A DNA stretch of 64,000 nt from Octopus sinensis (Eukaryota): NCBI RefSeq assembly GCF_006345805.1, contig NC_043000.1:141670001-141734000 (forward strand). Reading direction: 5' to 3'. How positions within the stretch are numbered: position 1 is the first letter of the stretch; every line of letters begins with the position of its first letter. A model generated the notes under the pieces. That model saw only the letters and a program-made list of their open reading frames with translations. It had not been told where the DNA came from and did not search any database. The position numbers were made by a program, and so were the translations under genes. This document shows, one piece after another, positions 8,773-52,800 of the stretch.

Positions 8773-8916
8773 TAAATATATAAGCACAATCAAATGAAAC
8801 TCTCGAAGGCGTTGCCCCGCTAGGAGTCTACTGATTGGACCATTTGAAAGTAAGAAAAAAAATTATATATATATATATTTGTTTGCATGTGTCTTTATAT
8901 TAATGTATGTATATAT

Positions 8917-10713
8917 ATTGAGGACCAACTGAAGGACACAACCTTCTATTGTGAAATACCCTCAAATATAGACCACCACATCATGAAAAATATCAACAAC
9001 CTGATCTCAAAACACTACAACTCACTTACCAATAATGAAAGAGATTACTTCACCAATTTCGAACCAAAACCCAGCAACTTCTACGGCTTACCGAAAATAC
9101 ATAAATCAAAAGATATTCAACAGGCAGTAAAAGAACAAGAAAGTGAGTACATAAAATTACTAGATCCAAAAGACCTAAAACTTAGACCTATTATAACTGG
9201 TCCAGCATGCCCTACCCACCGTCTAAGCAATTTTATTGACATTGTTTTGAGACCACTATGTGCTTACATACTCTGTTTCATCAGGGATGACATCGACTTC
9301 CTGTCCCATCTTCCCAAAACAACAGAAACAAATTCAGTTTTACTAAGTTTTGATGTGGTACGCCTCTACACCAATATTCCACACGATTTAGGAATAAAGG
9401 CGATTAAATACAGGTTAGAAAAACATAGAAAAGTGATTCCCAGCAGATTCCCAGTGCCATTTATATTAAACACAGTCAAACTTATTCTAGAAAACAACAC
9501 ATTCTTCTTCAATGGAAAGAATTACATCCAAATTAGAGGCACGGCGATGGGAACGAGGTTTGCTCCCGTTTACGCCAACTCTGTAATGGGATACTTAGAA
9601 CAACTCTACCAAGAGGTGGAGGTAAACTATGGCACTGGATTTAGAAAGCATATTGAAAAGGCATGGAAGAGATACCTTGACGACTGTTTCATAATCTGGA
9701 CAGAATCTCTAAATACTCTGGAAGAGTTCAATATCCTCCTGAACAACCTACACCCATCTCTCCAATTTACAAAGGAGATGAGTAGTACCAAATTACCATT
9801 CCTAGATATAATGGTAATTAAAAAAGACACTACCATCACCACAGATATATACTATAAACACACAGACACACATTAATACCTGAATTTTAAGTCGTGCCAT
9901 CCACCACATACGAAACGCAACATCCCATACTGCCTAGCCAGAATAATTTGTACCATTATAGAAGATGCAAATATCAGGAACAAATGCCTAACAGAACTAA
10001 GAGAATTTTTACTCAAACAAAAATACCCATCTCTACTTATAGAAAATGGCATACAGCAGGCTATAAAAATACCCATACAACAACTTAGGACAACCCAAGG
10101 AAGAGGAAAACAAGAACAAGTCATACCATTCATATTGAAACACGATTTATGTCACCAGAATATCTTCAACATTGCCAAAGCAAACCTAACAATCATTGCT
10201 CAAAATAATGAATTAAAAGACATAATGACGGATCGAGCTATGGTTCTTAGTAAAAGACAGCCTAAAAACTTGAAAAAATTACTAACAAAGGCAAAATTTG
10301 ACCTTAGCAACAAAGACCAAACATTCACTGTATCTAAATGCAATGATAGCCGATGTGGCACATGCCAATTCATACATGCCCGCCAATATATAAACACAAA
10401 AACCGGGGAAATATTCACGAATATGAACTGCAAAAGCAGAAATTTAATTTACTGCATCAAATTCCCAAATTGTGAAGAAATATATGTAGGTCAGACGGGA
10501 AATGCACTATCAGTACGCTCACGTGTACACCGACAACAGATTAGAGACCCAGAGGTCCGTCAGATACCTTTGAGTAACCACCTAGCAGCATGTGGTCGGA
10601 AAATATATATAATATTTCCATTCTACAAATTACACAGCCCAAGTGAAATCGAGAGGAAAATCAGAGAAAATAATTTTATTGATAAATTCGAACCCAAGCT
10701 AAATAAGCAATAA
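8917..10713 (+). pseudogene. Penelope-like element ORF: reverse transcriptase + GIY-YIG endonuclease, 5'-truncated, one in-frame TAA at 9874-9876
   Basis: RT motifs FYGLPKIHK, LRPII, SFDVVRLYTNIP, GTAMGTRFAP, WKRYLDDCF, PFLDI. The frame continues past the TAA (YLNFKSCHPPHTKRNIP...) into the 10135 ORF, which is in the same frame and has CNDSRCGTC and LIYCIKFPNCEEIYVGQTG..R..QH..E (GIY-YIG). Confidence 0.95.
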
Positions 10714-11380
10714 TAATAATACTTAGAGGTACTACTTCTACTGCTACGACCATGACCACTAACAACAACAACAATACTAAAGGTGATCAAGATGAAGATA
10801 GCAGGAAAATTATCTTATTTAGGGTTAAAAGTTCTATTGCCACCACCATCACCACTAGCAACAATAATTAAGGTGCTGACAATGATGATGATGACAATTG
10901 AAATATAAAAATCCCTGACAAAGGCTATTTACAACATTTCTAAAAATAGCCAACAATTGCTGCCTCGGCCAGGGTTAAGATACAGGACTCTTGACATGTT
11001 CAACAAAGCGTGACGCCTAAACCAATCAGCTCAACCAACCAATCAGCATAAGTAATTGAATGATACTACACACTGATTGGTCAGAATACTGTGTGCAAAA
11101 CCTAGCTATCTGGAGCCTACACAGCTGTATTTAAGGCACAGATTTAATCATCTCGCTACAGTAAAAAATTGTGATTCATGACTCTCACCACTACTACATG
11201 AACATGAAGATTGCAGAATTTAATGCATGAAAGTACTAGTTCAATCAGAATGAACATTTAACATTATTTTATTTCATTTTATTATATTATATTAGCTTAT
11301 ATTATATCATTATAAGATTGTAAATAAAACGTGAAAATCAGACAAGGTTGGAATTCCTTTTTTTAATATATTCTTCTATA
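10714..11380 (+). promoter_or_regulatory. Penelope 3' pseudo-LTR with CCAAT boxes and a TATA-like box
   Basis: Two CCAATCAGC (11022-11048), a reverse CTGATTGG (~11073) and TATTTAAG (~11129), all upstream of a hammerhead motif. Confidence 0.65.
11199..11243 (+). ncRNA. Minimal type I hammerhead ribozyme motif in the Penelope pseudo-LTR (C3 changed to A)
   Basis: TGAAC-aTGAAGA-t-TGCA(gaatttaa)TGCA-t-GAAA-GTAC-TA-GTTCA: stem I TGAAC/GTTCA, stem II TGCA/TGCA, palindromic stem III AGTACT. Confidence 0.7.
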
Positions 11381-11450
11381 CACAATCACACACACCCGTA
11401 TATATATCAATATATATATATATATATGTGTGCATGTAACACCAGATAAC

Positions 11451-15469: not shown

Positions 15470-16960
15470 GTAAATAAAGAAAAAAAAGCAAATACAAAAA
15501 ACAACGCGAGGACGTGGTACATATAATGTATTAGCAGACGCTCAGGAAAAGAAAGATGGTTTAACATTTCGAGCAGACGCTCTTCTTCGAAAACAGAGGA
15601 AAGTGCAATAAAAGGTAAGACAGAGGAAGAAAATCGCCAAAGATGCACATGTGGTTACATTTTGAAATGACCGGAGAGGAATGGGTGAAGAAAAAGTACT
15701 TTCTAAGACAGGAGAGTGTAAGAGAAGGAGATATGTGTGTATGTGTGAGTATAAGCGTGCGCGCTGGTCTGTGTGTGTATTAACACGTGTATGTGCGTAT
15801 ATGTGTGTATGTGTTGTGTGAGTGTGTGTGGTTTTGGTTGCTTATATGTGCATGTGTGAGTGAACTTCGTATCGCTTAATGTAGGAAGTATTTAGTAGTA
15901 AGAGTGGCTGTCTATTGTGTAGTGTGTCTCTTCACATTTACGTAGGAGAATGTGTGCGTATTTGTGTGTGTGTAAGTGTGTGCGTTGGGTTGTGTGCCGG
16001 ATTTTGTCTGTGGAGTATATGTGTGTTCTTCTGTGTGTGTGTGGGCGTCCATGTATGTGTATGTGCGTATGTGTTTATGTCCATGTATGTGTAATTGTGT
16101 GTGTGTATGTATGAGTGTGTGTTGGAGGTATGTGTGAGTTTATATGTATGCGCATGTATGTGTGCGTGTGTTTATGTGTGCATGTGTGTGTGTATGTGTG
16201 TGAGTAGAGCTGTGTGTTAGTTATGTGTGCATTTCTGTGAGTGTGTGCGCGTGTGCGTGTGTGTATGTGTGTGCGTGTATGTATGTGTTGTGTGTGCGTG
16301 TATATGTGTTGTGTGTGCTTGTGTATGTGTGTGTATGTGATGAAAGGGCAGGTGTGACAGCGGGATATGGAGCACGGGAAGGATCCTGGTGAGGCTGGTG
16401 GGAAAGAGAAGGTGCTACGTTTCGGCCACGTTGAAAGGAAGACAAGGGTGGGTTAGAGAAAATGAGGCGGGCGGTGGGATCTAGATGGAGACATCGGAAG
16501 GCCCATAGGAGCCTCCGACGATGGGTACGGTGGAAGGTTGGAAAAGGAGGAGAAAGGGTTGCGGTTAGAGGATTGGTGTGGGGAAGGAGAGAGGACGGTG
16601 GTGTGATCGTTTCGACGAGCGCGGGCAAGGGCGGTTTGGACAAGGGTTGAGGGTAAATCTCGATGGATGAACAGGCGGGCAAGATACTGGGACTGGGTTG
16701 CGAAATCCTGCTTCCGGCTGCACAAGCGTCGGAGGCGGAGGAACTAGGAGTAGTGGATGGCCCGTTTGGTGTGGGAGGGATGGGAAGAGGAGAAGTTGAG
16801 GTAGAGTTGCGGAGATGGTGAGCGTGTGGGAAGGGAGGTCAATGATAAGAGAGATATCTTGGAAGTTAACCGAGGTGTGAGAGATGGTAGACGTAAATTG
16901 GAGAGAGAGAGAGAGAGAGAGAGTGGTGGCGCCTATACAGTCGTCTATGTAGCGACCATA
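15470..16960 (-). mobile_element. Degraded Penelope-like element (RT C-terminal fragments, CA-rich spacer, pseudo-LTR)
   Basis: Minus-strand fragments YGRYIDDCIG, LQFTSTISHTSVNFQDI, SHPSHTKRAI, LRLRRLCS...LARLFI, FSNPPLSSFQRGRN. The downstream segment is homologous to 21150-21370. Confidence 0.8.
15559..15594 (-). ncRNA. Minimal hammerhead motif with degenerate core
   Basis: GTTT-tcGAAGA-a-GAGC(gtct)GCTC-GAAA-tG-TT-AAAC. The core CUGA reads UCGA here. Confidence 0.55.
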
Positions 16961-16968
16961 CACACACG

Positions 16969-20087: not shown

Positions 20088-20380
20088 TTACATTATATAA
20101 AAGGGCTTAGTAAAATAATTACTTTGCCGCATACTGAATCATTAGAATAGCAGCTAAAAAACTTTTTTAAAGCTATTTCTAATACTTAAAGAAAATCTCT
20201 CTCATATATAGTGTTTGCTTAATTCACCTCACAAAAGTTTGGGGGTAAGGACATCGAAAAGCCCTTTTATATAATGTAATAATGTAATAATTTGAATTCG
20301 CCTGAATGGTCCCTTTGCATACTGACACTTGGTGAAATGATTAATAATTAATTAATTTTGCCCTCAATTGTTGAAATTAT
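20088..20380 (+). mobile_element. Short element within (TA)n, with a 21-bp perfect inverted repeat; possible distant relative of the hammerhead repeats
   Basis: TTACATTATATAAAAGGGCTT (20088-20108) / AAGCCCTTTTATATAATGTAA (20259-20279). Motifs CTGAATGGTCCCT and CCCTCAATTGTT resemble the 21.4-kb family. Confidence 0.5.
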
Positions 20381-21370: not shown

Positions 21371-21378
21371 ATATATAT

Positions 21379-21430
<52 letters not shown>

Positions 21431-21664
21431 CAATTGAGGATAAAATCTTAAAAAGAAATTATCAGTAGTCAGCGTGAAAAACCTCGTAAGAGAAAAAATC
21501 CGTAAATTCTTCCTCTTTGAAAATATTCATTTATATTATATTGAGGGTACTACTATTCGTAGATACCAACACGCTAAGAGGGACCAATGCAGTCAAAACT
21601 ACTAAAAATAAACAAAATTTTACCGAATGCAAAACTTCAAAACACTCATTTTAAAAAAGATTCA

Positions 21665-21728
21665 GTTACATATCACATGTGATTTCGCATTTAATGCAGA
21701 ATATGCATTTCATGTTCATCAGTGCAAC
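21665..21728 (-). ncRNA. Type I hammerhead ribozyme (inverted arm)
   Basis: Reverse complement of the motif at 22457-22520. Confidence 0.85.
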
Positions 21729-22456
21729 AAACTCAAGAAATATAAGAGAAAACATAACATTACAAGCTCGATAGCCAACCGTACAATTCGTCGTAGCATG
21801 TACGAATGTTTATCTTTACATATCTATGAAAATGGCGGGCTTATTCGCAATGCATTTCGGTACCAAATTGTCTAGTCGGAATAAAAATTCAGTATTGAAC
21901 TATTCCGGTGAAAAATATAAATTAACAATTGAGGATAAAATCTTAAAAAGAAATTATCAGTAGTCAGCGTGAAAAACCTCGTAAGAGAAAAAATCCGTAA
22001 ATTCTTCCTCTTTGAAAATATTCCGAATTCTTTTTTAAAATGATGTGTTTTGAAGTTTTGCATTCGGTAAAATTTTGTTTATTTTTAGTAGTTTTGACTG
22101 CATTGGTCCCTCTTAGCGTGTTGGTATCTACGAATAGTAGTACCCTCAATATAATATAAATGAATATTTTCAAAGAGGAAGAATTTACGGATTTTTTCTC
22201 TTACGAGGTTTTTCACGCTGACTACTGATAATTTCTTTTTAAGATTTTATCCTCAATTGTTAATTTATATTTTTCACCGGAATAGTTCAATACTGAATTT
22301 TTATTCCGACTAGACAATTTGGTACCGAAATGCATTGCGAATAAGCCCGCCATTTTCATAGATATGTAAAGATAAACATTCGTACATGCTACGACGAATT
22401 CTACGGTTGGCTATCGAGTTTGTAATGTTATGTTTTCTCTTATATTTCTTGAGTTT

Positions 22457-22520
22457 GTTGCACTGATGAACATGAAATGCATATTCTGCATTAAATGCGA
22501 AATCACATGTGATATGTAAC
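22457..22520 (+). ncRNA. Type I hammerhead ribozyme with long stem II
   Basis: GTTGCA-CTGATGA-a-CAT-ga-AATGCA(tattc)TGCATT-aa-ATG-c-GAAA-TCAC(at)GTGA-TA-TGTAAC: stem I GTTGCA/TGTAAC and palindromic stem III ATCACATGTGAT. Predicted cleavage after 22514. Confidence 0.85.
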
Positions 22521-22644
22521 CGAATTCTTTTTTAAAATGATGTGTTTTGAAGTTTTGCATTCGGTAAAATTTTGTTTATTTTTAGTAGTTTTGACTGCAT
22601 TGTCCCTCTTAGCGTGTTGGTATCTACGAATAGTAGTACCCTCA

Positions 22645-22701
<57 letters not shown>

Positions 22702-22713
22702 AAATATATATAT

Positions 22714-27989: not shown

Positions 27990-30480
27990 GATGGTTCATT
28001 TACAGAATTATGTGATAGAGGAAAAGGGGAAGAGAGAGAAAGGAAAAAATAAAAATAGAAATGTAAACAAATAAAATTAAAGGGGAAAAGGAAGGAAAAT
28101 TCACAGCGACAATGCTCTTCTCAATACGTGTGACGTACAACTTAAGACACTCTCTGCTTTTAGCCTTGAGCTCCCTTGCTACTGATAGATGTACATCAGT
28201 TTGTTTGCTACGGGTCACATATTTGCCATGCAGAGGTTTTTGTTCCCACCTATCAGCCAATTGTTCAAGTGCATTTTGTTTTGTCATTGATGTCACCTTC
28301 TTTGCAACTACAGTTGCTGCACTTCTCTCATGCTGTTCTACCTGGGTGTTATGCATAAACGAGTTTGAAAATTTTTTGCTCTCTTTCATAACAGAATGAG
28401 GCTTCTTACATCTTTCGTGGTTTTCAATGACCTTTAGAATCCAGTCGTTAGATATTTCAAGATATTTTGCCAGTCCAATTGCAGTAGTTTTATATTTTTC
28501 AAACTAGATCAAGCACGACATCCTTCAGCTTTGGGTAGGTAAAGACGATCTGCATCTACCTTTAGGTGGTGCATCATATTGCAAGTCAGCAGCTTACGGA
28601 TTTTCCTGTCAATCTTCCTTATTTCGTTCATATTCTAGTTCAACACAGAAACTGTAAATAACAACCGGAACTGCTAAAGAATCTATAGCTAACACCTTAT
28701 CACGTGCATTTAATTCGGATTTTACAACTGCTCGAACTCTCCTATAACACTCCTTCCTCATCATCTCTTTCATATTTACATGTTAAAAGCCAGAGCCCTC
28801 ATTTATTCCGAGGTATTTGTATGTTTGTCCCTGCTCGAGTTATTTTATGACTGTGTCAATATCCAACACAACTGAATGTGAGGTCTTCTGTTTCCCTTTC
28901 TCGAAAGTGGCTTTGGCACATTTATCAACACAAATAATTCCATCCCAATGTCATCACTGAGTGCTATAACAGTACGTAATAATCCTTCAAGCTCATTATC
29001 ACCTTTGCCGTAGAGTCTTCGGTCATCTGTATAAAATAGATTACTTATTTTCTTGTCGCCAATTTCATATCCATAACCTATTCTGTAAGGGGTATTAGGG
29101 CTATGCAGAAAATTAAAGGTGAAAGTTAGTCGCCATGGAAGATACGTTTTGTGGTCAGTACTTCATAACTGTGGTGTAATAGGAGCCTCATCGCCACCCT
29201 TTTTGTTTAATGGGGAAAATATTGTTCCGTTCATTTAAATTGTATGTTTTCTCCAGGAGGATGGATGTGAAAATTTTATACGTGGTAGACAGATATGTTA
29301 TGGGTCGATAGTTTTGGGGAAATTTGGTTTCATTATTCTTCGGGTTTTGGTAAACTTTGTGATTGCTATGCAATCAGGTGTTTTCGTAGGATCTCTCATA
29401 ATTCCATTGTCTAACTTGACTAACTTCCGTGTGCGCACAGGAACTTGGCGAGCCAGAAATGTGCACCCTATCATCACTAGATTTCCACTTATGAGCCTTC
29501 GTGAGTGTCATCACTAGGTCTGCTTCTGTGATGCCCCCCCATGCTTGTCCTTGAAAGATTTGGTAGGATCCTTCCGTGTGTCTAATCCAGTCTGCATTTT
29601 CATTGTAAATCTTTTCATTACTCCGTATATTTATCCAGAAGCTTTCAACTTCTTCAATGGCGGCGGGTCTCTTCATAGTTTATTTTCTCTTTCCCTATTT
29701 CACTGTAGAATGCTTTGGCATTCAATGTGAACTGCTTATTTTGCTTGTAAATTTTGTTTCTCTTGTCAAATCTTCGTATTCTTTGAGATTTTGCTGGGAC
29801 ATTTTGTTGCAGTGTTTCTTTATTGAAAGCAGTTCTTCTCTTCGTTAAAATCTGTTTTCTTTTCATCTTTCTTCCTTTTCTGGGTTTTATATTTTTTCCA
29901 CAACTTAGTTCATTCAATGTTGATATTTCACCTCTCATTATTTCAATCTCTTTTTCAATTTTACTTTTCCAGTTTGGATTTCTTCTCAGGTTTGAATCTT
30001 TTTTTTTTCAGAGGCATGCAATTGGTTTCAATTGTATTAGCAGCCGCGTAAATAATTTCATTTAATTCAATGAAATCTGGTTTTAGTTCTTTTCTAATTT
30101 CCTTTGTTACATAGTTTCACATTTTAATTTGTTTTTCTATTCTGGATTGTATTTGAGAGCTTATGAAGTGTTTATCTATCATGCATATTAGCGTGTCTTA
30201 CAATTGCAAACTTATTCAGGATTTTCTGCTTCGGTTCTATCAAAGACTCTATGTTCTTCAGTAAAAGTGTAGTCTTCAAATATTGTTTCTTTACTACTAT
30301 CCTCGCTATTTTTATCAGGTTCGTTACAATTTATTTCTCTAGACGTTTGCATGTTCTGGTCAGATGGCAGTCTTTCAATTGAAAGTCGTGGAGAGTTGCT
30401 CTCTTCGTCTGGTTTTTCATTTCCTTGCTTTCTTATTTTTTGGTCATTTTCCGATGAGCGCTTGATCGCAGTTATTTCTG
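27990..30480 (-). mobile_element. R4/Dong-clade LINE, degraded, including RT fragments
   Basis: ETLQQNVPAKSQRIRRFDKR..FTLNAKAFY, VESFWINI, PQNYRPITYLSTTYKIFTSIL..FPIKQKG, LSPLIFCIAL, NLFYTDD, DKCAKATF, WEQKPLHGKY. Confidence 0.85.
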
Positions 30481-30539: not shown

Positions 30540-31310
30540 ATTTCCATGAACTTTTCAAAATTTTTAATCACTGTTCCCAGGCCTCTGAAAATTATTGGTA
30601 CTACTACCACCTTTTTCAGCTACCAAAACCGCTTAACCTCCAAGCTAACCTGTTATATCTATCGACTTTTCTTTCTTCCTTATCGCATACCTTGTTGTCA
30701 GCTGGGTATGCTATATCTATGATACAGTATCGTTCGGTTTCTTTCTCAATTAACACTATGTCTGGTATCCTATTCTCTATATCGTGGCCGTATTGAATCA
30801 TAAAATCCCAATGGATCTTTGCATTATCATTTTCGATGATGCCTTCGTGTTTATGTTCGTACCACATTTTGCTCTGTCAAGAATATATTTGTTGCAAAAT
30901 GTCCAATGGACAATCCTTGCTATATTGTCATGACGTCTCTTATATTCTTTCTGAGTTAGCGGTGTACAGGTAATATGCCGAATGGTTTCACCATTTTGAT
31001 TACAAATTCTGCACTTATCACTTTCTGACGCGTTCTCTATTCTGTATTTGATGTAGTTGGTTCTTAATGCTTGCTCTTGGGCAACATACATTGGAGCCTC
31101 CGTTTCCGGTTTTAAATCACATTTAATCATCCATAGCCGTCTTTTTTCTCTGACTGTCTTATGTTCAACATCCCTATGAAATTGTCCATGCATTCTTTTC
31201 TTTATACACCCATTTTCAGTTTCATTCATTCTCAAGTGCTTGTACAGTGCTTTATCTTTACAACCTTCCAACCAACACAAACCTGACCTTCTTACTGCTA
31301 GTAATTAATC
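30540..31310 (-). mobile_element. R4/Dong-clade LINE C-terminal fragment (zinc knuckle + restriction-like endonuclease)
   Basis: MHGQFHR..DLKPETEA..AQEQALRTNY, CRICNQNGETIRHI.C, EYKRRHDNIARIVHW, IHWDFMIQ..RIPDIVLIEK..IIDIAYP..KE..KV..Y. Confidence 0.9.
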
Positions 31311-42569: not shown

Positions 42570-45500
42570 ATGTGCTTCGTTGATGTTGATCAGTTAGCTG
42601 ATCGGCTTAAGCGAAGCAGGGTCGTTGTTTATTTATAGTATATTCAGGCCTGCTGATGATTACGTAAGTATGAAATCACTGTGATACAGGTCTATATATT
42701 TTTAAATGTCTTTCTTTGAAAAATTGCATTCGGTAGGATTAGTAATACTTTTGGTAGAAATGACTGATTGTCCCTCTTAGCGTATGGCTGTATGTATGTA
42801 GAATGCCTCCTGGCATGTATGTATAATGCCCTCTCTATATATAAATTAATATGTTCAATAAGAAATAATTATTTTCGAAATTTTTTCTCTTATGAGGTTT
42901 TTACGCTATCTACCTGACAATTTCTTGTTAAGTTTTCCTTATTAAGTAGTTGTCCTTAATTGCTAAATTTTTATTCCGAAAAAACTTTTCCTCTCCCGAA
43001 ATGCAATTCGTAAAAGTTTGCCATTCATCCGGATATAGTATATAAAATTCACCCATGTGCTTCGTTGATGTTGATCAGTTAGCTGATCGGCTTAAGCGAA
43101 GCAGGGTCGTTGTTTATTTATAGTATATTCAGGCCTGCTGATGATTACGTAAGTATGAAATCACTGTGATACAGGTCTATATATTTTTAAATGTCTTTCT
43201 TTGAAAATTGCATTCGGTAGGATTAGTAATATTTTTGGTAGAAATGACTGATTGTCCCTCTTAGCGTATGGCGTGTATGTAGAATGCCTCCTGGCATGTA
43301 TGTATAATGCCCTCTCTATATATAAATTAATATGTTCAATAAGAAATAATTATTTTCGAAATTTTTTCTCTTATGAGGTTTTTACGCTATCTACCTGACA
43401 ATTTCTTGTTAAGTTTTCCTTATTAAGTAGTTGTCCTTAATTGCTAAATTTTTATTCCGAAAAAACTTTTCCTCTCCCGAAATGCAATTCGTAAAAGTTT
43501 GCCATTCATCCGGATATAGTATATATAAATTCACCCATGTGCTTCGTTGATGTTGATCAGTTAGCTGATCGGCTTAAGCGAAGCAGGGTCGTTGTTTATT
43601 TATAGTATATTCAGGCCTGCTGATGATTACGTAAGTATGAAATCACTGTGATACAGGTCTATATATTTTTAAATGTCTTTCTTTGAAAAATTGCATTCGG
43701 TAGGATTAGTAATATTTTTGGTAGAAATGACTGATTGTCCCTCTTAGCGTATGGCGTGTATGTAGAATGCCTCCTGGCATGTATGTATAATGCCCTCTCT
43801 ATATATAAATTAATATGTTCAATAAGAAATAATTATTTTCGAAATTTTTTCTCTTATGAGGTTTTTACGCTATCTACCTGACAATTTCTTGTTAAGTTTT
43901 CCTTATTAAGTAGTTGTCCTTAATTGCTAAATTTTTATTCCGAAAAAACTTTTCCTCTCCCGAAATGCAATTCGTAAAAGTTTGCCATTCATCCGGATAT
44001 AGTATATATAAATTCACCCATGTGCTTCGTTGATTTGATCAGTTAGCTGATCGGCTTAAGCGAAGCAGGGTCGTTGTTTATTTATAGTATATTCAGGCCT
44101 GCTGATGATTACGTAAGTATGAAATCACTGTGATACAGGTCATATATTTTTAAATGTCTTTCTTTGAAAAATTGCATTCGGTAGGATTAGTATATTTTTG
44201 GTAGAAATGACTGATTGTCCCTCTTAGCGTATGGCGTGTATGTAGAATGCCTCCTGGCATGTATGTATAATGCCCTCTCTATATATAATTAATATGTTCA
44301 ATAAGAAATAATTATTTTCGAAATTTTTTCTCTTATGAGGTTTTTACGCTATCTACCTGACAATTTCTTGTTAAGTTTTCCTTATTAAGTAGTTTCCTTA
44401 ATTGCTAAATTTTTATTCCGAAAAACTTTTCCTCTCCCGAAATGCAATTCGTAAAAGTTTGCCATTCATCCGATATAGTATATATAAATTCACCCATGTG
44501 CTTCGTTGATGTTGATCAGTTAGCTGATCGGCTTAAGCGAAGCAGGGTCGTTGTTTATTTATAGTATATTCAGGCCTGCTGATGATTACGTAAGTATGAA
44601 ATCACTGTGATACAGGTCTATATATTTTTAAATGTCTTTCTTTGAAAAATTGCATTCGGTAGGATTAGTAATATTTTTGGTAGAAATGACTGATTGTCCC
44701 TCTTAGCGTATGGCGTGTATGTAGAATGCCTCCTGGCATGTATGTATAATGCCCTCTCTATATATAAATTAATATGTTCAATAAGAAATAATTATTTTCG
44801 AATTTTTTCTCTTATGAGGTTTTTACGCTATCTACCTGACAATTTCTTGTTAAGTTTTCCTTATTAAGTAGTTGTCCTTAATTGCTAAATTTTTATTCCG
44901 AAAAAACTTTTCCTCTCCCGAAATGCAATTCGTAAAAGTTTGCCATTCATCCGGATATAGTATATATAAATTCACCCATTGCTTCGTTGATGTTGATCAG
45001 TTAGCTGATCGGCTTAAGCGAAGCAGGGTCGTTGTTTATATTATAGTATATTCAGGCCCTGATGATTACGTAAGTATAATGTGATACCTGATAGGTCTAT
45101 ATTTTTTAAAATGTCTTTCTTTGAAAAGGCATTCGGTAGGATTAGTAATATTTTTGGTAGAAATGACTGATTGTCCCTCTTAGCGTATGGCGTGTATGTA
45201 GAATGCCTCCTGGCATGTATGTATAATGCCCTCTCTCTATATATAATTAATATGTTCAATAAGAAATAATATTTTCGAAATTTTTTCTCTTATGAGGTTT
45301 TTACGCTATCTACCTGACAATTTCTTGTTAAGTTTTCCTTATTAAGTAGTTGTCCTTAATTGCTAAATTTTTATTCCGAAAAAACTTTTCCTCTCCCGAA
45401 ATGCAATTCGTAAAAGTTTGCCATTCATCCGGATATAGTATATATAAATTCACCCATGTGCTTCGTTGATGTGATCAGTTAGCTGATCGGCTTAAGCGAA

Positions 45501-46210
45501 GCAGGGTCGTTGTTTATTTATAGTATATTCAGGCCTGCTGATGATTACGTAAGTATGAAATCACTGTGATACAGGTCTATATATTTTTAAATGTCTTTCT
45601 TTGAAAAATTGCATTCGGTAGGATTAGTAATATTTTTGGTAGAAATGACTGATTGTCCCTCTTAGCGTATGGCGTGTATGTAGAATGCCTCCTGGCATGT
45701 ATGTATAATGCCCTCTCTATATATAAATTAATATGTTCAATAAGAAATAATATTTTCGAAATTTTTTCTCTTATGAGGTTTTTACGCTATCTACCTGACA
45801 ATTTCTTGTTAAGTTTTCCTTATTAAGTAGTTGTCCTTAATTGCTAAATTTTTATTCCGAAAAAACTTTTCCTCTCCCGAAATGCAATTCGTAAAAGTTT
45901 GCCATTCATCCGGATATAGTATATATAAATTCACCCATGTGCTTCGTTGATGTTGATCAGTTAGCTGATCGGCTTAAGCGAAGCAGGGTCGTTGTTTATT
46001 TATAGTATATTCAGGCCTGCTGATGATTACGTAAGTATGAAATCACTGTGATACAGGTCTATATATTTTTAAATGTCTTTCTTTGAAAAATTGCATTCGG
46101 TAGGATTAGTAATATTTTTGGTAGAAATGACTGATTGTCCCTCTTAGCGTATGGCGTGTATGTAGAATGCCTCCTGGCATGTATGTATAATGCCCTCTCT
46201 ATATATAAAT
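42570..46210 (+). repeat. Tandem array of ~482-bp hammerhead-containing units (retrozyme-like satellite), 7 full units plus ~270 bp, inserted in (TA)n
   Basis: Units start (ATGTGCTTCGTTGA) at 42570, 43055, 43537, 44020, 44496, 44978, 45456 and 45937 and are nearly identical. Confidence 0.97.
42646..42693 (+). ncRNA. Type I hammerhead ribozyme (repeated at 43131, 43613, 44095, 44572, 45531, 46013; disrupted at 45054)
   Basis: AGGCCTG-CTGATGA-t-TAC(gtaa)GTA-t-GAAA-TCA(ctg)TGA-TA-CAGGTCT: 7-bp stem I, GNRA-capped stem II, stem III ATCACTGTGAT. Predicted cleavage after 42686. Confidence 0.88.
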
Positions 46211-51369: not shown

Positions 51370-52800
51370 TGAAATTTTATAGATTGGTAGAAACTAATTA
51401 TAGGAAATAAAGGTATGTTTTTGCCAATGTTTGCAACAAAAGGATTTGCCTTTATCATATAGAAAGGATCTAGATGGAATGTTCCATTCCAAACCAAATA
51501 GTTTATTATGTTCCTGTAGAGACCAAATTAATTTACTAAGTCCAGTATTGCTGCGCTTATTGATATGTCTAAATGAAGAGTAATGGTTAGATATTCTTTT
51601 CGACAACTGAGATGAAGAACTACCTATGTAAACAAAGATTTCTGAACCGGAACTAATTTTACATTGATAAACAGAGTCTCTGGTCTTAGAACTCCTGCTA
51701 AGGAAATAAATGCGAATCGAATTTATATTGTTATGTGAAGAGATGAGTTGTGACAGGTTTTTGGTGTTTGAAAACCCTATTCTAATTCGTTGTGAATTGA
51801 TAATAGAATGGTATCTTGAATTTTAGGGGAAATTCCTATGTATAGCTTCACGAATCTGGTAAGGGAGGTTGGATTTGATCTCTTTACCATATGGAATTAT
51901 CAACCAAACAGTTTTACCTAGAACATACCTTATTATTAGGGTAATTATCGTTAAAAGTCCTAAGTTTACTTCATAATGTAAAAAAAGTTCTTAAAGAACT
52001 GTTATCTACCTTACGCTTCAAAATGATATTTTTCGATTTAGTGTTGTTATTCGAACTAACATTTATATTGTTATAACTGTTATGACGCGCTTTCTTGTTC
52101 TCATTTGAGACCTCCAACGGTCATGACTGACCAGGGGATTGCACTTAGAAGCCTACCCTGCAAGGCACAAATGCGGGCAAGGTTGTTTATGGAAGACCAT
52201 CAGTTTCCCATGCATCCCGACCTCCCCTCTCCATGCCACCAGTGTTATCCAAGGGAAAGGCAAAGGCCGATACAGCTTGGCACCTGTGACGTCGCAGCTC
52301 ATTTCTACAGCTGAGTGAACTGGAGCAACGTGAAATAAAGTGTCTTGCTCAAGAACACAATATGCAACCCGGTCCGGGATTCGAGCTCACAACATCACGA
52401 TCGTAAGCTCTACGCTCTAACTACTGAGCCATGCGCCTTCACCTGTTCTGATTAATAGAGGTACAATTAATGTCAATAAGGTTAATATAGGTAACTTTTT
52501 CTTTATATCCAGCATTAAGTAAGGCAGAGTTATAAATACGGCTTTATCTTTGAAGATATCAACATAGACAGGTAATCTAGAAAGTCTAAGTGAAATATTT
52601 CTAACTAAATTCCTTGTAATAGCCTTTGAATGATTACTGAGAGGGCCAGTATATATTAGATTAGTTGAGGGTTTATGGTATGGGAAATAGGAATCCTTAT
52701 GTAAGTTAAGGGTAATATCATAAAGTTGGCTTCAGTTATATCATCGACGAAAACAATGCTTAAGCCCATGTTTCAGAACAATTTAACCAATCTATTTTTA
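51370..52800 (-). mobile_element. Degraded Penelope-like element of a different lineage (RT thumb, linker, GIY-YIG), interrupted by a SINE
   Basis: DITLNLHKDSYFPYHKP..SNHSKAI..ISLRLSRL..IF..ALLNAGY; VWLIIPYGKEIKSN..NFP..IINSQRIRIGFSNTKNLSQLISSHN; SVYQCKI..VYIGSSS..KRISNHYSSF..TGLSKLIWSL..LEWNI. Confidence 0.82.
52106..52442 (-). mobile_element. tRNA-derived SINE (family A, long tail) with probable 10-bp TSD
   Basis: Reverse complement of 61032-61383. Flanks are TGTTCTCATT (52096-52105) and TGTTCTGATT (52444-52453). Confidence 0.9.

Follow-up and report, generated by a model that had tools for sequence, protein, structure and literature searches.

Head-to-head insertions of a putative octopus retrozyme pair two fixed 3' ends, one per arm

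In the window analysed here, a 64,000-nt stretch of Octopus sinensis DNA (NC_043000.1, positions 141,670,001 to 141,734,000), two copies of a 497-nt non-coding unit stand back to back at 21426-22651, joined 5'-to-5' inside (TA)n, which raises the question of how an insertion comes to carry two divergent arms, each longer than the unit itself. The first-pass annotation had described two arms of a ~496-bp unit meeting at ~22023, each with a hammerhead, and had both 3' ends merging into (TA)n at AT-rich points; both descriptions are confirmed, with a unit of 497 nt (Table 1). Unit numbering takes window position 22023 as 1, with a period of 497, or of 495-496 where single bases drop out. Both flanks of the locus are (TA)n, and its two arms are 98-99% identical. 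They are 3 substitutions apart, yet have three minor alleles in common, and a C at unit position 2 is private to the plus arm, where it is found in both passes and nowhere else; it may be one template base read twice, or a chance junction base. The start of the plus arm lies 5-6 nt past the predicted cut position (7 if its first C's are junction bases), in agreement with the earlier figure of about 6 nt downstream, although the accompanying description of a start 'at the cleavage site' was loose.

A transcript across the locus had been expected to fold into ~600 bp of dsRNA. The predicted fold of a read-through transcript instead comprises an arm-arm duplex of ~490 bp together with pairing of the TA flanks, because the two possible pairing registers exclude each other. 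The predicted long-range stem that encloses site A is near-invariant in this and a sister family, with little covariation. At 20362-20376, 1 kb upstream, a short look-alike of the site-B end (CCCTCAATTGTTGAAATTATATA) runs into (TA)n and is possibly a very short old copy.

Table 1. The two-armed locus and its features, in window coordinates.
Feature	Position	Strand	Unit positions and remarks
Left (TA)n tract, target side of minus arm	21371-21425		
Minus arm, ends at site B	21426-22023	-	unit 140->497->242, 598 nt, 1.2 units
Site B junction, CAATTGTTAAT then TA (here CAATTGTTAAT then ATAT), with hairpin GATAA...TTATC immediately 5'	21426-21463	-	
Type I hammerhead motif, minus arm	21665-21728	-	predicted cut 21671/21670; minus arm reads through
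5'-to-5' junction, adjoins GAATTC palindrome	22020-22030		single C at 22023 common to both arms
Plus arm, ends at site A	22023/22024-22651	+	unit 1/2->497->~133, ~628 nt, 1.27 units
Predicted long-range stem, TTAGCGTG with CACGCTGA, site A inside	22113-22221	+	unit 91-98 with 192-199
Type I hammerhead motif, plus arm	22457-22520	+	predicted cut 22514/22515
Site A junction, CCCTCAATATAAT then ATA (here CCCTCAATATAAT then ATAT), with hairpin GGTA...TACC immediately 5'	22618-22654	+	
Right (TA)n tract, target side of plus arm	22652-22713		

The single hammerhead motif of each arm is made up of stem I (GTTGCA/TGTAAC), the core elements CTGATGA and GAAA and a palindromic stem III (TCACATGTGA), and its predicted cut falls after unit 492. 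Stem I shows a two-sided swap in the sister family: of 139 motif copies from both families, 80 carry GTTGCA/TGTAAC and 28 carry the replacement GGCCTG/CAGGTC. Rfam returned no hammerhead match in the window at the gathering score, and at E values of up to 10 the locus drew 6 weak matches, none of them a hammerhead; a lone motif has a minimum-energy structure other than the hammerhead (z about -1). Two motif copies are predicted to pair as a dimer through stem III, a mode of pairing that the accessible part of PMC4209133 describes for animal ribozymes of this kind. Apart from a TA-driven frame, the unit contains no ORF of 120 aa, and with neither an RT nor a GIY-YIG ORF it is not an autonomous Penelope-like element. 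Its copies are dispersed over many contigs at 95-99% identity, with up to 3.1 head-to-tail units (locus L007). Contigs of two public runs guessed to be RNA cross the cut site, and such contigs tell neither strand, ends nor circles. Its sequence features place the family among the non-LTR retrozymes, with a predicted ribozyme, a Penelope-like insertion footprint and an unusually long tail.

A DNA search of the 2.72-Gb assembly yielded 1837 candidates, 40 of which were scored. Because the ranking of this search favours long copies, two more samples were drawn by the exact 3' junction, blind to the 5' side (154 matches to site B plus TA and 121 to site A plus TA, with 100 listed from each set). 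Arms were mapped in 170 loci (30 + 60 + 80 stretches, duplicates included). The third sample, blind to both ends, was obtained with an internal 14-nt motif common to sister families (4155 matches, the first 100 listed). Among the loci selected by junction pattern, 184/226 distinct arms have a head-to-head partner. The head-to-head layout is therefore the rule in the family, and the window locus, at first taken for exceptional, is an ordinary member. Targets in (TA)n also recur in the DNA-search and 14-nt-motif samples, neither of which was selected on TA. At L099, L103, L126, L129 and L145, entire insertions including their joints are tandemly duplicated with a flank, through either secondary duplication or doubling in the assembly.

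Homogeneous many-unit arrays occur in the sister family. Within the window, 42570-46210 (+) is a single-armed array of 7.6 tandem copies of a 482-nt sister unit, ~70% alike to the 497-nt unit over unit 11-225; each of its units has an intact hammerhead motif, units differ by 0-4 substitutions, and the array ends in (TA)n at the equivalent of site A. A two-armed sister-family copy elsewhere (L248/L259, contig C1, 38.67 Mb) has arms of at least nine and three units, with zero substitutions among five units compared, and is possibly the several-kb product of a single event and a seed of satellite DNA.

The 3' ends of the arms are fixed at two sites, site A (unit ~131-139) and site B (unit ~242-248), and since these lie ~110 nt apart, start sites can be scored beyond doubt. 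Of 111 distinct head-to-head events examined, with A scored over unit 128-146 and B over unit 236-252, 98 have both ends at A or B, comprising 96 A+B, 2 scored as A+A and no B+B (P about 1.5e-26 against a free 1:1 choice; a duplicated locus, L103, enters the 96 twice). One end lies elsewhere or is cut off in the remaining 13 events. Inspection by eye shows that L120, scored as A+A, is A+B with a small duplication, that L132 is a true A+A and that L145 is a complex B+B.

The 14-nt-motif sample contains 22 head-to-head loci, mostly of the ~480-nt sister family (tail of ~120 nt, against ~110 nt in the family of the 497-nt unit). Scored by eye, 20 of them are clean A+B at the homologous sites, the other 2 are short+long and slightly off-site, and same+same combinations number 0/22. 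On contigs C1-C3, a coding Neptune-like family whose own two 3' ends lie ~30 nt apart has 27 head-to-head clusters, among them 24 short+long and 2 long+long, with 1 unresolved. This coding family was traced from a remnant in the window, a 5'-truncated Neptune-like Penelope element at 8854-11400 (+) that retains RT, CxxC linker and GIY-YIG, with one stop at 9874-9876, and shows 92% identity to 775-aa intact copies elsewhere; it ends in (TA)n with a 30-nt tail, and its 3' region holds a hammerhead-like motif whose core is altered. Another abundant family of coding Penelope-like elements (L260-L289, for example L266, L267, L282 and L288), with an ORF of ~780 aa, has two 3' ends ~37 nt apart and (TA)n targets.

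UA microhomology of 3-6 nt with the target is present at both sites, in support of the microhomology first proposed for the 3' junctions. Microhomology alone does not pick the sites, because other UA-rich words of the unit are nearly unused: those at unit 419-420, 459 and 490 carry 0/222 ends, and the one at 340 carries about three. Priming at any TA-rich point, as originally suggested, thus gives way to priming at two fixed sites. Hairpins lie 8-17 nt 5' of both, and in their basal stem a single two-sided change distinguishes the two families, although with two lineages only the support this lends to the hairpins is weak. The first-pass annotation had proposed to test whether junctions are enriched at the cleavage site and at TA-rich points, as opposed to scattered randomly along the unit. 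Junctions are not random, with 3' ends at two sites and a peak of 5' ends at the cut; enrichment at the cleavage site is observed, and among TA-rich points it is confined to sites A and B.

That the head-to-head joint is an artefact of assembly or of chimeric reads is hardly credible. Single-base indels do occur in the assembly, and none of the longest contig pieces listed from public runs bridges the 5'-5' junction of the window locus; part of the junction stretch is present in 20 public runs, in two of them at 0.55 of words. However, about a hundred distinct joints obey the A+B rule with TA on both sides of each, the arms are offset and not mirror copies of each other, and the joint of L025 (220/9, with 3 inserted bases) recurs in public run X1, in a contig with a depth of 21.7, X1 being a run that may come from the source sample. 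Three more joints of the L025 type are present in the same run. Just as hard to credit is the insertion of two independent copies, in opposite orientation, into one TA tract. The family shares its (TA)n target with the other Penelope-like elements, and copies of the unit do have unrelated elements as neighbours (L027, L105, L140), but no TA separates the arms, their orientation is always 5'-to-5', and the partnering of most arms, the strict A+B combination and the alleles in common lead us to reject a double independent insertion on pairing statistics.

The two arms overlap rather than abut, as B arms run past site A in 67/81 loci and only 3 of them start near it (unit 120-150). In L1 twin priming both strands prime and microhomology joins the products, which leaves an inverted 5' part; each cDNA covers its own part of the RNA, without overlap, and the internal point at which the second primer anneals varies. 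The retrozyme departs from this scheme both in its fixed sites and in its overlapping arms, and the LINE-style twin priming to which the inversion had been likened is rejected in its L1 form. Overlapping arms could also arise by fold-back self-priming, in which a cDNA would fold at a palindrome and be copied back, so that the second arm would be a copy of the first. Some joints do fall on palindromes with both arms starting from the same base (GAATTC at L066, L128 and L152; TA at L041, L078 and L098), the shared alleles and correlated 5' ends described below agree with such a route, and 34-47/81 loci fit an A arm nested in the B arm. In 45-31/81 loci (at a tolerance of 5-30 nt), the window locus included, the arms are instead non-nested, each holding sequence absent from the other, which excludes simple fold-back at those loci; furthermore, the A arm reaches further 5' in 47 of the 81 loci and the B arm in 28. 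Fold-back is thereby excluded as the general route and we hold it to be quite improbable as an explanation, although a minority of loci may still come from it.

Arms of the same locus differ at 154 of 11802 sites (1.3%) compared with 2.8% between loci, and in the sister family the corresponding values are 1.0% and 4.4%. Repeated passes within one arm differ by 1.34%, like the arms of a locus. Discordance between arms at diagnostic sites is 25/496, where 134 would be expected, and 14/120 in a young subfamily of 16 loci, where 51 would be expected; between repeated passes within an arm it is 6/201. The two main haplotypes have similar private divergence (0.27% and 0.35%). Clearly discordant arms are found at L036 (5 sites), L094 (3 sites) and L163 (2 sites), and because of these loci and the substitutions between the window arms, a single RNA for both arms is not universal. 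A succession of sources, or gene conversion from one arm to the other, could also account for the sharing of alleles. In 26/81 loci no more than 20 nt separate the 5' ends of the two arms, compared with 10.3 in shuffles (a value reached in 0 of 5000); when pairs near the cut are left out, the figure is 18/73 against 9.2.

Among 95 joints, the arms overlap by two or more bases in 42 and by one base in 14, 10 are blunt and 29 contain inserts, many of which look locally templated. Considering the 66 insert-free joints, 64% (42) overlap by at least 2 nt, compared with ~20% by chance, and overlaps of this kind are the pattern of microhomology end joining. The arms of L153 are joined via 8 bases that match the predicted long-range stem (unit 91-98 with 192-199).

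A single priming event at site B, followed by a microhomology switch to antisense RNA or to a second cDNA, would account for the A+B pairing and the microhomology joints without two starts. Site A would then be a stop or cut site, with the second arm ended there by annealing to a TA overhang or by endonuclease cutting. No other stretch of the unit is indeed as (TA)-like as site A, and antisense self-priming and endonuclease resolution of the tail have been proposed for Penelope, according to the accessible parts of PMC3846280 and PMC8557442. Nevertheless, 21 single-arm copies that carry an ordinary 5' truncation have their 3' end at A, A and B arms have an identical profile of stops towards the 5' side and the same peak at the cut, the hairpin context is alike at both sites, and both tail ends act as start sites in vitro (PMC11167929), all of which makes a single start unlikely.

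The 5' ends carry a signal of their own. Eight of the 226 arms begin within 1 nt of the cut, a position predicted beforehand, whereas the rate of stops further downstream predicts 1.4 (P about 1e-4). The GAATTC palindrome coincides with a second peak at +7 to +9, which is slightly higher (10 stops, the highest 3-nt rate) and is separated from the first by a gap in stops between +1 and +7; the whole interval from -10 to +19 holds 34 stops against 15 expected. Of the 128 arms that reach the cut site, 100 read past it, and 30/226 arms are longer than one unit; most templates are therefore circles or uncut multimers, which supports the earlier suggestion of a template longer than one monomer. Either kind of template agrees with the low discordance between repeated passes of an arm and with the homogeneous arrays of the sister family. 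In addition, 6 arms end between 2 and 10 nt upstream of the cut, a stretch for which a cleaved RNA offers no template.

Stalling in the ribozyme stems, together with easy joining at GAATTC and at the U-tract, could account for the surplus of 5' ends around the cut with no cleavage at all. The stop rate tops at the palindrome and not at the cut, arms that end upstream of the cut or read past it point the same way, and the ribozyme is dispensable for insertion in vitro (PMC11167929). The coincidence of eight starts with a position predicted in advance, and the gap that follows it, argue against stalling as the full account and leave it doubtful. For the run-off of cDNA at a ribozyme-generated end, proposed in the first reading of the locus, support comes from the family-wide excess and not from the window arm itself. 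The plus arm crossed one hammerhead and stopped 5-7 nt after the next, as might be expected if the cDNA had run off a partly cut multimer and then been trimmed, but a stall, a join at GAATTC (+7) or chance fits equally.

The unit shows only AT-rich chance matches to 30 loci of one coding Penelope-like family, that of the remnant in the window, and to 30 GIY-YIG loci, the partner loci having been drawn from the best 139 of 20268 and the best 147 of 5029 candidates. The best RVT_1 matches were rejected as a partner, being LINE-type ORFs unrelated to the unit, as were the Penelope-like ORFs beside L017, L027, L105, L140 and L206, which are, where inspected, separate insertions or fragments across TA tracts. 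Near-identical, closely spaced LINE-type elements with long open ORFs (L171-L175) are concentrated on small unplaced contigs. The window also holds decayed fragments of other Penelope-like elements at 16249-16963 (-) and 51394-51822 (-), with similarity to RT/thumb and GIY-YIG, respectively. A weak zf-RVT match at 30798-31304 (-; E 2e-4), with a similar-looking fragment at 28000-28503, probably marks the remnant of a non-LTR retrotransposon.

Taken with the family junctions, which support the initial idea of a Penelope-type insertion into (TA)n with priming from both ends of a break, the likely explanation of the two-armed layout is that a Penelope-type RT/endonuclease primed copying twice, once per site, from two nicked strands of (TA)n. 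The ORF-less element would borrow an RT/GIY-YIG protein in trans, and the borrowed protein would nick both (TA)n strands. Each strand would use a different site, the 3'-OH of one pairing with the UA-rich RNA that directly follows hairpin A and the 3'-OH of the other with that directly following hairpin B; the two sites would probably belong to a single RNA molecule or to two from one source. Both cDNAs would extend towards the 5' end of the RNA, the one from B re-copying a stretch already covered from A, and arms could exceed one unit because the template would be a circle or an uncut multimer. Each cDNA would stop independently of the other, with a preference for the ribozyme cut and the bases just after it, and the two 3' ends would be joined by microhomology end joining to give the 5'-to-5' joint. 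Points against double priming are the exceptions L132 (A+A), L145 (complex B+B) and the two long+long clusters of the coding family, the discordant arms, the lack of a coding partner with sequence in common with the unit among the Penelope-like loci compared, and the finding that start sites show no bulk strand difference in vitro (PMC11167929). A bolder version of double priming, which in our estimate falls a little short of an even chance, would make the asymmetric double start obligatory. One complex with one RNA would present each strand of the break with a different hairpin-marked site, the 'optional tail' would be a fixed signature of every complete insertion, animal retrozymes would keep the two-site module along with the ribozyme, and the junctions would record ribozyme cutting in the germline.

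The origin of the inverted ends and tails of Penelope elements is a matter of open rivalry, with self-priming, endonuclease resolution and internal double initiation all proposed, and the present family offers hundreds of young, short and fully readable insertions on which to weigh them. The value of the analysis lies in the pairing rule and not in the window locus itself: use of one site per arm is near-strict, and simple fold-back is ruled out for a large share of loci. The family also provides evidence, at the level of junctions, for Penelope-type machinery moving an animal retrozyme, a link that in the accessible parts of PMC7229834 and bioRxiv 10.64898/2026.07.22.740005 is drawn from shared ribozymes, co-occurrence and repeat phylogeny, with no analysis of insertion junctions. 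The accessible part of PMC9977147 adds nothing further. In the literature covered, from which subscription papers, including older ones on Penelope structure, are mostly absent, no count of end pairing per insertion and no twin priming is given for these elements. Within this scope, which is no proof of novelty, the analysis adds A+B pairing that is near-strict across three families, arms that share alleles without being nested, and the peak at the cut.

The two-armed architecture with a one-sided tail is itself an already known Penelope footprint, found here on a non-LTR retrozyme. As described in the accessible parts of PMC8557442 and PMC3846280, Penelope insertions carry an inverted 5' copy and a tail of 30-40 bp that is often one-sided and termed optional, lie in TA targets and have been explained by self-priming or endonuclease resolution; these texts give no count of end pairing. 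The octopus insertions resemble those of endonuclease-bearing Penelope-like elements in their head-to-head inverted 5' copy, partial tandems, extension at one end, (TA)n targets and hammerhead in the repeat. They differ from the published ones in that the retrozyme has no ORF, the tail measures ~110 nt instead of 30-40 and two-armed copies are the majority. With the non-LTR retrozymes of PMC7229834 and bioRxiv 10.64898/2026.07.22.740005, as far as their accessible parts go, the family shares an AT-rich non-coding unit, a few hundred nt long, that bears a single type I hammerhead with a palindromic stem III, a range from monomers to multimers and the company of Penelope-like elements; circular RNA is demonstrated for those retrozymes, whereas the 497-nt family is known from DNA junctions and contigs. 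A purified Penelope-like protein, Poseidon of the green anole, nicks and extends both strands in vitro, and two internal start sites on its RNA define the tail (PMC11167929). The octopus family is like Poseidon in its AT-rich targets, in a stem-loop at the start region and in uncut RNA being a good template. The Poseidon start sites, however, are not homologous to the target, in contrast to the UA microhomology of the retrozyme sites, and where the accessible part of PMC11167929 reports no coupling per event, the two sites of the octopus retrozyme, ~110 nt apart, are paired one per arm.
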